From IMG/VR virus record IMGVR_UViG_2529293249_000010: a stretch of DNA of 7,983 nt. One strand, written 5' to 3'. The translations under genes and the position numbers were made by a program. Shown in pieces: positions 3,965 to 6,080 of the stretch (position 1 is its first letter; every line of letters begins with the position of its first letter). The DNA comes from a virus. Taxonomy: Duplodnaviria > Heunggongvirae > Uroviricota > Caudoviricetes. Under the pieces are notes generated by a model. The model was given only the letters and a program-made list of their open reading frames with translations. It ran no database searches and was not told the origin of the DNA.

Positions 3965-4420
3965 TTACAGATAATTGCGGTAACTGTTATCCGGGGTGAT
4001 TTCCGGGTCAGGCTCCGTGCGGGGAATTTCCCGCCATTCCCGCGCCACCGGTGCCGCCCGGCTGACCGGAACAGGGTCCTGCGGGTAAATATCCAGATAT
4101 TTCTCCCGCCATTTCTGTAATTCCGGGTCTCCGGCCATTTCTTTCAGTACCGCATGCCGGTTTACGGGGCTGCGTTTGAACAGGTCAGGACGGTCACAGG
4201 TAAATTCCCGCAGAAAACGCCCCAGCGGGATGTCTGTGGTGCGCCCGTCGGCGAGGATACGCACAAGGATACTGAATTTACGGCGGTACGGGTTCCAGAC
4301 AATTTCCGGGCAGCGGTACGGCATTTCCCACGGAATACCGTCTTCCAGAATGCCGACCACGGCCACATCGGGAAAACCGGCAGAACGGTAAATCTCACCG
4401 GGCTGGGGAAAATCAAACAT
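3965..4420 (-). CDS. 151-aa conserved hypothetical protein of the left operon (position and length of P4 orf151); function unknown
   Basis: ATG at 4420-4418; the upstream eps stop TGA (4415-4413) lies 2 nt inside this gene (ATGTTTGA), suggesting translational coupling. TAA stop at 3967-3965. Confidence 0.82.
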   Translation of the reverse strand: MFDFPQPGEIYRSAGFPDVAVVGILEDGIPWEMPYRCPEIVWNPYRRKFSILVRILADGRTTDIPLGRFLREFTCDRPDLFKRSPVNRHAVLKEMAGDPELQKWREKYLDIYPQDPVPVSRAAPVAREWREIPRTEPDPEITPDNSYRNYL

Positions 4421-4700
4421 GCGTCCTGTCTCCCCGGTCTTTCTGCTGGGCGAGAAAATCGCGGCACAGGCCTTTGGCTTTCAGCTCATTCAGCACAAAA
4501 TCAATATCTTCATTCAGGTAGCTGAAAATATGCGGAATGTAGAGCTGATGGAGGCCGGAGAGTTCACGGTGAATCAAATCACCCCCAACAAACTGGGATA
4601 CGGCGCTGGCGCGGTTGAGCTTATGGTAAGCCTCAATGCTGAGGTGTTCACGGGCGTCATGACGCGCTGAGACGGTCTGAGGGGCTTTTTTATTACGCAC
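4413..4700 (-). CDS. eps: Epsilon-like protein (95 aa, GTG start): candidate anti-repressor that derepresses the P2-type helper prophage
   Basis: No in-frame ATG exists downstream of the kil stop. GTG at 4700-4698 is preceded by GGAGG with a 6-nt spacer and gives exactly 95 codons; the kil stop TAA (4695-4693) lies 2 nt inside (GTGCGTAA). The coding-like region starts here, while the upstream part of the same frame is Cys/Pro/Trp-rich. Assignment to eps rests on position and recalled length. Confidence 0.68.
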
Positions 4701-4890
4701 GGGACACCTCCACCACCGGCAGACGGGCAGCAAGGGAGAGCACATAGTCACGGACAAGGGAACGGCGGGCGCTGCGTTCATCACCGGCGACGGTGCGAAG
4801 CATACAGATACGGGGATGACGGTCTGCGCGACGGACAGCCGCAAACACAAAGACAAATTCAGGGTGTGAGGGGGTAAGGGTCGTAGCCAT
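4693..4890 (-). CDS. kil: Kil (65 aa), first translated gene downstream of PLE; nested in-frame within eta
   Basis: ATG at 4890-4888 preceded by GGAGG (plus-strand CCTCC 4898-4902) with a 7-nt spacer; 65 codons; TAA at 4695-4693. The seqC element of the immunity leader (4899-4945) directly abuts this ribosome-binding site. Confidence 0.75.
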
Positions 4891-5292
4891 AAGGCAACCT
4901 CCGATAACAGCGTAAATGACGCTATCGCCGGAGTTTCCACGCTCGATGGCGATAGCCCAGACGGGGGTGGAAATACCGGCGTTATCGGAAACCGGCCAGC
5001 CCGGAGGCTGCCCCGCCTGAGCTACCATTGACTCTGCGGTATAATGAGCGGACGCGGGCAGAATGCACGGAGTGCCATTTGCTCGACTGACCACACACCA
5101 CACCATAATCTGGCGCTCTGTGGCGTTGATTGCGACACAAAAAAAGACGCATGGCGCGTCATATGTCGCCGATAACATACTCGGGTTTCCACGCCCGGCT
5201 GCCGATTTTGCGGCAGCGGAAAAACTATATCCGCAAATGCCGGAAAAAGGCAAGCCAGAAAAAGGAAGTTTTTGCAGAACAGGCATCATCAT
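4693..5292 (-). CDS. eta: Eta (about 197-199 aa), long ORF beginning upstream of PLE and ending as kil; translated from PLL transcripts
   Basis: Same frame as kil, open back to ATGATGATG (5292-5284), giving 199/198/197 aa. The vis stop TGA (5291-5289) is embedded in the triple ATG. The frame continues upstream to an ATG at 5337 (214 aa) that lies inside vis. It runs through the whole immunity leader, so it can only be translated from PLL read-through RNA. Confidence 0.55.
4899..4945 (-). promoter_or_regulatory. seqC: target of CI RNA in the left-operon leader, abutting the kil ribosome-binding site
   Basis: The transcript-strand sequence carries GCGUGGAAAC...GUUAUCGG, as does seqA; both blocks are complementary to the seqB region (4966-4988). 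Position is immediately 5' of the kil Shine-Dalgarno. Confidence 0.5.
4950..5020 (-). ncRNA. cI: CI immunity RNA (seqB region); boundaries approximate
   Basis: The plus strand at 4966-4988 reads GTGGAAATACCGGCGTTATCGG, so the minus-strand transcript carries CCGAUAAC...UUUCCAC, complementary to the GUGGAAAC and GUUAUCGG blocks of seqA and seqC. The region is GC-rich with several internal inverted repeats (for example CCGG...CCGG). Exact processed ends cannot be read from sequence. Confidence 0.5.
5165..5204 (-). promoter_or_regulatory. seqA: CI RNA target at about +13 to +52 of the PLE transcript
   Basis: The transcript-strand sequence CGGCAGCCGGGCGUGGAAACCCGAGUAUGUUAUCGGCGAC shares the GUGGAAAC and GUUAUCGG blocks with seqC. 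Confidence 0.5.
5224..5253 (-). promoter_or_regulatory. PLE, sigma70-type promoter of the left operon / immunity transcript
   Basis: On the minus strand TTGCCT (5253-5248) - 18-bp spacer - TATAGT (5229-5224); predicted start near 5217, just upstream of seqA and about 35 bp downstream of the vis stop. Confidence 0.5.
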
Positions 5293-5555
5293 GCGTCGTA
5301 CCCCCGTTTGCGTCCGGCAATGCGCCCGGCCATCCATGCGGTGACTTCAGAGTGCAGCCAGGCCACATTTTTACCGCCAAGACTCACCTGCGGCGGAAAT
5401 TCCCCCTTACGGATGAGTTCGTAGATGGTCGAGCGTGACAGGCCGCACAGGTGCATCACTTCCGGCAGACGTAAAAAACGCTCCTGCGTGATGTCCGGCA
5501 GCGGCATCAGTGGCGTCACAGGGGCGGGAGACGGGGAAGAAAAAACAGCTTGCAT
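5289..5555 (-). CDS. vis: Vis: AlpA/Vis-family helix-turn-helix regulator and excision factor (88 aa)
   Basis: ATG at 5555-5553 with GAGG 7 nt upstream. Core motif [49 protein letters not shown] is typical of the AlpA/Vis/Xis-like family. It is the first gene after PLL. An internal ATG at codon 17 is an alternative start. Confidence 0.85.
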
Positions 5556-5599
5556 CGGGCTACCTCGTTAATGTCCATACAGCACCGGATAAGTCCGTC

Positions 5600-5680
5600 C
5601 GGCTTCGGGTAGCGCTTTATTTTGTGAATATTTTCGGCAGACGCAACAGGGGGGATTTGTTCCGGCAGTCTTACAATGGC
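5600..5680 (-). promoter_or_regulatory. PLL late promoter region with a Delta/Ogr-type activator box TGT-N12-ACA
   Basis: Dyad TGTTCCGGCAGTCTTACA at 5658-5675, about 100 bp upstream of the vis ATG; a -55 placement would put the start near 5611. The -10 element is poor (AAAATA or TATTCA-like), as expected for an activator-dependent promoter. Confidence 0.42.
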
Positions 5681-5832
5681 TGTGTATTTTTTGTACATCA
5701 GCGCCAGATAGCTTTAAAACGCTCTGGAAGGAGCTGGAAAAAATTATAGTGAAATACAAATTGTTTTTTCTTATTTATTTCAGTGAATTAATAAAAATAA
5801 AAAGTAATAAACAGCACAAAAAGCCCATCAAC

Positions 5833-6016: not shown

Positions 6017-6080
6017 TGTGTCAGGGCTGGCACATCTGCAATGCGTCGTGTTGTTGTCCGGTGTACGTCACAATTTTCTC
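6017..6080 (+). promoter_or_regulatory. Psid late promoter with a Delta/Ogr-type activator box TGT-N12-ACA
   Basis: Dyad TGTGTCAGGGCTGGCACA at 6017-6034; candidate -10 CACAAT at 6069-6074; sid Shine-Dalgarno GAGGAG at 6094-6099, 6 nt before the ATG. Confidence 0.48.

Follow-up and report, generated by a model that had tools for sequence, protein, structure and literature searches.

The nested kil/eta reading frame of a P4-like satellite phage appears to be kept open for ribosome transit rather than for its protein product

In the satellite phage P4, a constitutive promoter sits within the eta gene, and termination and processing of its transcript yield the CI RNA. Kil corresponds to a shortened Eta, whereas the full-length protein arises solely from the late promoter further upstream, in translational coupling with the alpA homologue (PMC10111431). 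Translation of eta blocks termination, according to the summary of Forti 1999 given in PMC10111431. The CI RNA pairs with seqA and seqC, and P4 SeqA has been called a structural homologue of IsrK (PMC4825925). In the present work we relied on the literature for promoter activities, Kil toxicity, the dependence of timm on Rho and the polar effect of nonsense mutations. The t1 and t4 terminators reportedly contribute too, and timm is said not to be essential for lysogeny; stop codons in P4 eta reportedly have a polar effect on the genes downstream in a rho+ host, an effect that is absent from rho mutants.

The DNA analysed here (hereafter named the window) is a stretch of 7,983 nucleotides. Its gene order, int-alpha-orf106-orf151-epsilon-kil/eta-vis-ori-sid-delta-psu, is that of P4, and the region under study is 96% identical to P4 DNA over 1.3 kb. 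The window is a P4-like satellite element with an immunity specificity unlike that of P4. It resembles P4 (Forti et al. 1999; Sabbattini et al. 1995; Briani et al. 2000) in its genes, their order and their lengths (65 and 199 codons), and also in the ATGATGATG/TGA junction, the PLE hexamers, the t1 hairpin and the CI RNA scaffold; it differs in the specificity loops of seqB, and seqA and seqC have changed accordingly. We consider it highly probable that this region serves a P4-like satellite phage as its control module for immunity and the early operon, with the published nesting of kil in eta and with eta kept for ribosome transit. The kil/eta arrangement is already known and no part of this finding is new. 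The initial annotation had interpreted the locus as a translation-coupled antitermination switch, in which the same DNA is regulatory RNA when transcribed from PLE and coding when transcribed from PLL. This interpretation is supported and matches the published P4 model; it repeats Forti et al. 1999 and is thus already known, and it omitted t1, timm not being the sole terminator. Since the switch has been textbook P4 biology since 1999, its rediscovery adds only a variant with a different immunity specificity.

All the features described below lie on the minus strand. The eta gene (199 codons plus stop, in frame with kil) spans positions 5292-4693, from the first ATG of ATGATGATG to a TAA at 4695-4693, and the limits given in the initial annotation were correct to the base. 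The longest frame ending at 4693 was listed as 5337-4693, with 214 aa counted from its first ATG. The eta start (ATGATGATG, 5292-5284), located by sequence reading, overlaps the stop codon of vis (orf88; 5555-5289), an AlpA-family excisionase/regulator gene (Pfam PF05930 Phage_AlpA, 74 bits) that is annotated at this place as ORF88 in the P4 record. As had been claimed, the vis TGA (5291-5289) is embedded in the triple ATG, within the ATG-ATG of the eta start (junction sequence GACGCATGATGATGCC). The vis and eta genes are translationally coupled. The 3' end of eta is the 65-codon kil gene (4890-4693 including its TAA; codons 4890-4696), and the near-ideal ribosome-binding site ascribed to it corresponds to a GGAGG located 7 nt 5' of the ATG (ATCGGAGGTTGCCTTATG). 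The kil product is a predicted Icd-like cell-division inhibitor, matching NCBIfam NF033153 (phage_ICD_like) with 76.1 bits (cut-off 25) at Kil residues 12-59. In 79 of 81 loci kil starts with ATG, and the start of the kil mRNA is C-rich and G-poor (C/G ~1.9 across the first ~60 nt). The epsilon gene (helper derepression protein; 4700-4413; Pfam PF25738, 170 bits, in agreement with the P4 annotation) begins with a GTG at 4700-4698, 2 nt upstream of the kil/eta TAA (junction GTGCGTAA). The Eta protein is 88.9% identical to that of the P4 frame, with 22 amino acid differences that all, except one, lie upstream of kil. Full-length homologues of 182-203 aa were found in many Enterobacterales, and Pfam PF10554 (Phage_ASH) matches Eta residues 22-146 with 84.2 bits (cut-off 26).

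The frame begins upstream of PLE and spans the entire immunity leader, as had been proposed: PLE, seqA, t1, the CI RNA and seqC all lie inside it. The PLE-type constitutive promoter, TTGCCT-18-TATAGT (5253-5224), was identified by its consensus match and is identical in P4. It is the only sigma-70-like site on the minus strand and lies ~40 nt downstream of the eta start, at a position that agrees with P4 PLE, with an expected transcript start near 5217; the scan is blind to PLL, which is an activator-dependent promoter. A TGT-N12-ACA dyad at 5675-5658, ~400 nt upstream of PLE, is a tentative PLL activator site; five such dyads occur in the window against 1.75 expected, which is not significant, and the assignment was made by position, leaning on the established knowledge of P2/P4 late promoters. 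Three RNA families were detected above their Rfam gathering thresholds within the eta frame, namely the seqA leader element of isrK type (5217-5140; RF01394, 74.7 bits, threshold 50), an a1/b1-type target of C4 RNA, c4-a1b1 (5230-5178; RF03163, 51.5 bits, threshold 46.7), and the CI immunity RNA, a full-length match to the C4 antisense RNA family (5032-4945; RF01695, 77.9 bits, threshold 45). The t1-type intrinsic terminator (5160-5136) consists of the hairpin GACGCGCCATGCGTC (5160-5146), which corresponds to the 3' hairpin in the isrK model, followed by T7, and reads as D-A-P-C-V-F-F in eta, where it forms invariant 'protein' columns. The linker between t1 and the CI RNA (5139-5033) is variable in sequence and length; the segment analysed comprised 35 codons, eta residues 53-87 (5136-5032).

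The seqC element, together with the kil ribosome-binding site (4944-4891), was recognised by its complementarity to the CI RNA loops: the patches GUGGAAAC and GUUAUCGGA complement these loops, and GUUAUCGGA overlaps the GGAGG Shine-Dalgarno. The seqB specificity loops of the CI RNA are UUUCCGAUAAC and UAUUUCCAC (GAUAAC/UUUCCAC here versus CUGUGAA/UUCUCAC in P4), and the differences between the window and P4 are confined to these complementary patches, the changes in seqA and seqC compensating for those in the loops. Among 42 seqB variants, cognate complementarity was ~8 nt for seqA (mean 7.7) and ~9 nt for seqC (mean 8.4), compared with 6.0 for non-cognate combinations, and for most variants their own seqC holds a 9-nt complement to seqB. 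Because the seqB loops are unlike those of P4 and seqA and seqC have changed to match, the element in the window is predicted to be heteroimmune to P4, probably so.

In a lysogen, transcripts from PLE would begin inside eta and, owing to this location, would lack the eta start; the leader would remain untranslated, fold and be processed into CI RNA. The two seqB loops of CI would pair with seqA and so promote termination at t1, and pairing of CI with seqC would cover the kil Shine-Dalgarno. With kil untranslated, its C-rich start would be naked RNA, at which Rho would terminate transcription (timm). On a transcript from PLL, upstream of vis, ribosomes would finish vis, restart at the overlapping ATGA and translate eta through seqA, t1, the CI RNA sequence, seqC and kil, with a handover to epsilon at GTGCGTAA. 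Such unbroken translation would melt the hairpins and shield the RNA from Rho, so that PLL transcripts would be insensitive to immunity. We infer that selection acts on the passage of ribosomes through the eta-specific part (the 134 codons upstream of kil) and not on the Eta polypeptide, and that translation defeats t1 as well.

Maintenance of the frame was examined in two samples. One included 80 loci, one from each of 80 Enterobacterales species, ranked by their match to the full Eta protein and hence biased toward intact frames; the other was picked on Kil alone, which corrects this bias, and is less diverged (Kil 89-100% identical). The eta frame was one uninterrupted match in 79 of the 80 species loci, and no stop codon was found upstream of kil in the eta frame, against 317 and 449 in the other two forward frames, both of which are also closed within the window. 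Given the base composition, a run of 134 codons would be free of stops with a probability of ~0.008. In the Kil-anchored loci the eta-specific part was intact in 148 of 155 assessable cases (vis, 146/150; epsilon, 157/159), and 83 of 88 unique intervals between the vis stop and the kil ATG, with lengths of 356, 380, 389, 392 and 401 nt, were in phase. Openness is not absolute, since five of the 88 intervals were out of phase and one locus had a nonsense codon; the rate of decay of vis is similar. The frameshifts of three loci sit in the T-run after the t1 hairpin. The linker was 60, 63, 66, 96, 99 or 105 nt long, only multiples of three, and contained no stops in frame 0, compared with 48 in frame +1 and 31 in frame +2. 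The initial annotation had pointed to in-frame stops upstream of kil as evidence that would speak against the switch; P4-like elements lack them, which indicates that the frame is kept.

The ATGA overlap with vis was conserved in 84 of the 88 unique Kil-anchored intervals. The triple ATG that had been described is present in the window, and its ATGATGATG type is common (123/170 unique loci). Of the three ATGs, however, just the first, the one in the ATGA overlap, is near-universal: codon 1 was ATG in 165 of 170 unique loci and GTG in the other five, whereas codons 2 and 3 were ATG in 140 and 127, respectively. An apparent loss of the frame in distant Pantoea, Erwinia, Yersinia and Serratia loci, which seemed out of phase by the vis-to-kil distance, was rejected. 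In these loci the vis-like match nearest to kil is found ~590 nt upstream, and eta is started independently, from a ribosome-binding site of its own; the distant match and independent start account for the apparent phase loss.

The analysis of coding constraint gave a different picture for the two parts of the frame. The ratio of third-position diversity to that of the first and second positions was 0.73-1.08 in every sizeable eta-specific segment versus 2.19 in kil, and in the linker nucleotide diversity was ~0.45 at each of the three codon positions. The dN/dS values were 0.82 for the eta-specific part versus 0.24 for kil. Since alignment errors in the diverged linker might raise the all-pairs values, the comparison was redone with close gap-free pairs, which gave pN/pS ratios of 0.81 [0.61-1.08] for the eta-specific part, 0.16 [0.10-0.28] for kil and 0.14 for vis; kil and vis served as the comparison, and epsilon, with zero pairs in the 80-97% identity band, was left out. 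The linker alone gave 0.52 [0.24-1.23] and may therefore be under mild amino acid constraint, and in the segments with RNA elements the synonymous sites are themselves constrained, which inflates pN/pS and leaves room for dual coding. Thus, by codon-position diversity, dN/dS and pN/pS no coding signature was detected in the 134 eta-specific codons, and kil is the only portion of the eta frame that has one. The conserved Eta 'protein' columns coincide with the -35, -10, seqA, t1 and CI RNA elements: the PLE hexamers read as conserved 'L-P' and 'Y-S' in the protein alignment, and the 'peptide' blocks GRxNPS, GIx and ERxNS change together as partners in RNA pairing. AlphaFold2 returned a pLDDT of 25-43 for the eta-specific part, low confidence being weak evidence. 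This lack of amino acid constraint upstream of kil had not been expected in the initial annotation; it leaves the switch unrefuted and agrees with a model in which selection is on ribosome transit and not on the Eta polypeptide.

An alternative is that Eta is nevertheless a functional 'Ash' or Bro-network regulator, with a selected N-terminal domain of 134 residues and true dual coding over the RNA elements. The PF10554 match, the transcriptional regulator labels of PHROG 6928 and related families, the conservation of full-length eta ORFs across genera and the handling of eta as a Bro-network gene in PMC10111431 would all agree with such a protein, as would the eta-like region embedded within a 340-aa annotated Ant protein in Stx phages and the space that the linker pN/pS leaves for weak constraint. 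However, codon periodicity is absent from all sizeable segments upstream of kil, the eta-specific pN/pS is far from the 0.14-0.16 of the neighbouring genes, and what is conserved in Eta corresponds to promoter hexamers, hairpins and a terminator, with co-variation as RNA pairs. The same 'peptide' is present in N15 and D6 despite in-frame stops, the pLDDT is below 50 throughout, and the 'repressor' label traces to an old reading of a 137-aa ORF as cI/ash that persists in P4 records. PF10554 does not behave as an evolving protein domain by any of third-position excess, pN/pS, pLDDT or the N15/D6 stops, and we regard a selected Eta protein as quite unlikely.

The missing coding signature would also fit a long frame that is a by-product of a G+C-rich, structure-constrained leader, kil being the sole gene and eta having no role. 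Much of the eta-specific part is conserved in nucleotides, so that openness could be inherited passively, and the distant modules of N15, D6 and PY54 work without an open frame. Such an accident does not explain the freely evolving linker, which changes length only in steps of three and is free of stops in this frame alone, nor the 83 of 88 intervals in phase and the conserved ATGA overlap with vis. The RNA elements of N15 and D6 tolerate stops, and a stop-free frame in P4-like elements is therefore not automatic. In addition, nonsense mutations in the eta frame reportedly led to premature termination of PLL transcripts (Forti 1999, as summarised in PMC10111431). An accidental frame is thus highly unlikely. 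An open frame, unconstrained amino acids and the stops of N15 and D6 together argue for selection on ribosome transit: selection appears to keep the eta frame translatable, and not to keep its protein, as judged from these comparisons.

We give even chances to a broader statement, namely that the 134 eta codons are kept only for translation, with the ribosome as antiterminator, that the protein families built on them are largely conceptual translations and that the frame is open or closed according to the module. If so, what is catalogued as Pfam Phage_ASH, as PHROG 6928 'transcriptional repressor' and under the NCBI names 'Ash family protein' and full-length 'Icd-like protein' would for the most part be a promoter, a terminator, an antisense RNA and two RNA target sites read as protein. 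The leader frame of C4 modules may then be open if transcripts from a promoter further upstream have to cross it (P4-like satellites, Stx-phage 'Ant') and closed in stand-alone modules (N15, D6, PY54). No discussion of PF10554 as RNA-derived was found in the literature searched. The comparative result has a modest value, as a clean natural case of a frame conserved for translation and not for its product. A widely used Pfam/PHROG family, with its 'repressor' and 'Ash' labels, probably reflects the conservation of RNA and promoter rather than a protein domain, which affects the annotation of satellites and prophages and the reading of 'Bro-network' genes.

The immI region of P1 and P7 (c4 antisense RNA, icd, ant) shares with the window the C4 RNA, the a1/b1 targets and a first gene that is Icd-like and is targeted by the antisense RNA at its ribosome-binding site. 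In P1 immI, repression of icd translation leads to Rho-dependent termination before ant, the same logic as in P4. The cargo differs, being an antirepressor in P1/P7 and replication genes downstream in the window. In the P1-like phage D6, unlike the window, stops immediately ahead of C4 and of icd interrupt the frame that precedes icd, and there is thus no eta equivalent; two of the stops in the icd-phase frame lie within the homologous leader and one further upstream. The anti-immunity locus of N15, PY54 and phiKO2 (CA RNA-type) also resembles the window. It has isrK-like and C4 RNAs and an Icd-like ORF, with an intrinsic terminator inside, all arranged in the order and phase seen here, and no coupled upstream gene is annotated within ~100 nt of this locus. 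N15 differs in that three stops interrupt the frame before the C4/icd part, and PY54 matches Eta in two pieces, which indicates that the frame is not kept there. In both N15 and D6 the isrK and C4 elements are still present, as is the 'peptide' similarity, which is in phase with icd.

A further parallel is found in the IsrK-orf45-anrP locus of Gifsy-1 (Salmonella), which has an isrK-family leader RNA and a read-through transcript. Its short upstream ORF, orf45, is AUGA-coupled and its translation is needed for the downstream gene; orf45 is conserved in nucleotides and not in amino acids, according to its authors (PMC4825925), which resembles our result for eta. Gifsy-1 differs in that a sRNA activates translation in trans, and its output is an antiterminator pathway, whereas in the window the output would be escape from Rho on the transcript of a second promoter.

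Gene order in the window (int, alpha, orf106, orf151, epsilon, kil/eta, vis, ori repeats, sid, delta, psu) was that of the annotated P4 record, with the left operon on the minus strand, and identity to phage P4 was 96% over bases 4400-5700. These comparisons identify the element as a P4-like satellite, distinct from the reference phage P4. In the RefSeq record NC_001609 the old 137-aa 'cI' ORF is still a repressor CDS, and kil, eta and CI RNA features are absent.

Reading of the sequence confirmed the nested in-frame kil and eta genes and the triple ATG over the vis stop codon proposed in the initial annotation, with all elements present and their coordinates exact. The eta frame starts on the minus strand at ATGATGATG (5292-5284), where the TGA stop of vis (orf88; 5291-5289) lies inside the first two ATGs, and extends for 199 codons from 5292 to a TAA at 4695-4693. 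Its last 65 codons (minus strand, 4890-4696) constitute kil, whose ATG has GGAGG 7 nt before it. The eta start is located about 40 nt upstream of the promoter PLE (TTGCCT-18-TATAGT, minus strand, 5253-5224), the sole sigma-70-like site on that strand, which is identical in P4. Three Rfam matches, each above the gathering score, fall within the eta frame on the same strand: isrK (5217-5140) and c4-a1b1 (5230-5178) at seqA, the upstream target of the CI RNA, and C4 (5032-4945) at the CI RNA itself. The intrinsic terminator t1, a hairpin followed by a T7 run (5145-5139), occupies minus-strand positions 5160-5136, so the Rho-dependent timm is accompanied by at least one other terminator within the frame. 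The kil mRNA start is C-rich and G-poor (C/G about 1.9). Kil is a member of the Icd family, a link between this module and P1 immI. The minus-strand GTG of epsilon (4700-4698) precedes the kil/eta TAA by 2 nt at the junction GTGCGTAA; together with the ATGATGATG junction, this makes vis, eta/kil and epsilon a continuous series of translationally coupled genes.

Of the triple ATG, the first codon alone is near-universal, being ATG in 165 of 170 unique loci and GTG in the other 5, whereas the second and third codons are ATG in 140 and 127, respectively. In relatives from Pantoea, Erwinia, Rahnella and Ewingella (loci L051, L059, L062, L066-L068 and L074-L081) eta does not overlap a stop upstream of it; a GAGGAAA-type ribosome-binding sequence comes after an in-frame TGA or TAA, with an ATG about 16 nt further on, and the nearest vis-like match lies about 590 nt upstream of kil. 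These loci are read as having a different eta start architecture. Two proteins from the homologue search, P0011 (287 aa) and P0082 (185 aa), join an AlpA/Vis domain to the Ash region and are apparent Vis-Eta fusions, as a one-base shift at ATGATGATG would give.

The Eta protein search returned 1291 homologues, with full-length forms of 182-203 aa in Escherichia, Salmonella, Klebsiella, Citrobacter, Edwardsiella, Erwinia, Cronobacter and others. Of 80 loci, each from a different species and ranked on the whole Eta protein, 79 gave a single unbroken match to the frame that ran up to the stop behind kil, and only L049 was frameshifted. The refuting check named in the initial annotation, stop codons in the eta frame of homologues upstream of kil, turned up none in this sample, while the two remaining forward frames carried 317 and 449. 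The linkers between t1 and the CI RNA measured 60, 63, 66, 96, 99 or 105 nt, every one a multiple of 3. To offset this ranking by the entire protein, two more samples (160 loci together) were drawn with Kil as the sole anchor. The eta-specific 134 codons were intact in 148 of these loci and disrupted or partial in 7, and the comparison genes gave 146 intact and 4 disrupted (vis) and 157 intact and 2 disrupted (epsilon). As a frame-independent measure, the spacing between the vis stop and the kil ATG kept the phase in 83 of 88 unique intervals, which fell into five length classes; the remaining five were each off by one nucleotide. Maintenance of the eta frame is thus roughly on a par with that of the real genes beside it. 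Two of the five exceptions (L133 and L227) and L049 carry their frameshifts at the T7 run of t1, as one-base changes in or beside the homopolymer (T6 in L133, T8 in L227), and these could be either real slippage mutations or assembly errors. Two records with Gram-positive names, L024 (titled Vagococcus sp. WN89Y) and L003 (a Clostridiales MAG), carry enterobacterial P4-like DNA, likely through contamination or misbinning.

Coding constraint on the amino acids was evident for kil but not upstream of it. Codon-position diversity in kil was 0.213, 0.190 and 0.441 for positions 1, 2 and 3 (ratio 2.19), and the same ratio was 1.03 for the N-terminus, 0.97 for PLE, 0.73 for seqA, 1.08 for the linker, 0.96 for the CI RNA and 0.87 for its downstream target seqC; the 8-codon t1 hairpin gave 1.85, from too few columns for interpretation. 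Over all pairs, dN/dS was 0.82 for eta codons 1-134 versus 0.24 for kil. In close gap-free pairs, pN/pS was 0.81 [0.61-1.08] for the eta-specific part, 0.16 [0.10-0.28] for kil and 0.14 for vis; the value for the linker only, 0.52 [0.24-1.23], leaves weak amino-acid constraint there possible. The conserved 'protein' columns coincide with the -35/-10 hexamers (L-P, Y-S), the seqA hairpins, the t1 hairpin with its T-run (DAPCVFF) and the CI RNA (SMVAQAGQ...ERxNS), and variable residues co-vary as RNA partners (G/S/G, E/L/E, R/P/R). AlphaFold2 (55 sequences) gave a mean pLDDT of 36.6, with 25-43 in the eta-specific part. The Eta amino-acid sequence upstream of kil therefore appears unconstrained. 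The Phage_ASH domain (PF10554) and the 'transcriptional repressor' PHROG 6928 map to 4855-5229 (Eta residues 22-146), a span that comprises exactly the promoter, seqA, t1, CI RNA and seqC and lacks a coding signature; both look like translated nucleic-acid elements.

Where the window differs from P4, the changes are concentrated in the two seqB specificity loops of the CI RNA and their seqA and seqC complements (three patches on the minus strand, 5189-5170, 4990-4960 and 4937-4895). Among 186 unique elements, 42 seqB variants were found in modular combinations. Most are matched by complementary stretches of 8 nt in the element's own seqA and 9 nt in its own seqC, the second of which runs into the kil Shine-Dalgarno sequence. 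Since the seqB loops differ (GAUAAC/UUUCCAC in the window versus CUGUGAA/UUCUCAC in P4), the element is likely heteroimmune to P4.

The interpretation of this region as a translation-coupled antitermination switch was supported, and it matches the published P4 model. In the summary of Forti et al. within PMC10111431, a constitutive promoter inside eta drives a transcript whose termination and processing give the CI RNA, Kil corresponds to a truncated Eta, and full-length Eta, which requires the late promoter lying upstream and whose translation is coupled to that of the alpA homologue, prevents termination by being translated. A passage of PMC4825925 describes pairing of CI with seqA and seqC, and SeqA as a structural homologue of IsrK. 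On PLE transcripts the leader would be untranslated, pairing of CI with seqA would promote termination at t1, and pairing with seqC would block the kil ribosome-binding site, leaving the C-rich, G-poor kil start free for Rho acting at timm; the Rho dependence and the polarity of nonsense mutations are taken from the literature, the anatomy and its conservation from direct observation. On transcripts from the late promoter PLL, ribosomes would move from vis onto eta at ATGA, read through the entire leader and kil, and arrive at epsilon. TGT-N12-ACA dyads occupy the places expected for activator sites of two divergent late promoters, PLL (5658-5675, toward vis) and Psid (6017-6034, toward sid), although the number of such motifs across the window is not statistically significant.

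In a translated-level search, full Eta also matched N15, PY54, D6, RCS47 and Stx phages. N15 (L242, 1090-1617) and D6 (L243, 1120-1671) have isrK and C4 RNAs as in the window and, read in the icd phase, the same 'peptide' motifs. Unlike the open eta frame of the P4-like elements, however, the icd-phase frame has 3 stops in N15, and the homologous leader of D6 has 2 (just before C4 and just before icd), with 1 more further upstream. Peptide similarity therefore follows from conservation of the RNA, and these RNA elements do not by themselves guarantee an open frame. PY54 (L245) has the same isrK/C4 module with a split icd-phase frame. In the Stx1 phage (L244, 1285-2307) an annotated 340-aa 'Ant' gene encloses the isrK and C4 elements and itself comes directly after a co-directional gene. 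This handful of cases suggests, as a lead only, that the frame stays open in modules that have to be transcribed through from upstream. From the maintained frame, the unconstrained amino acids and the N15 and D6 controls, we infer that ribosome transit, and not the Eta protein, is the selected function of the eta-specific part. The kil/eta model of Forti et al., the same as that of the initial annotation, has been known since 1999; an open frame with freely varying sequence is a modest extension of it.
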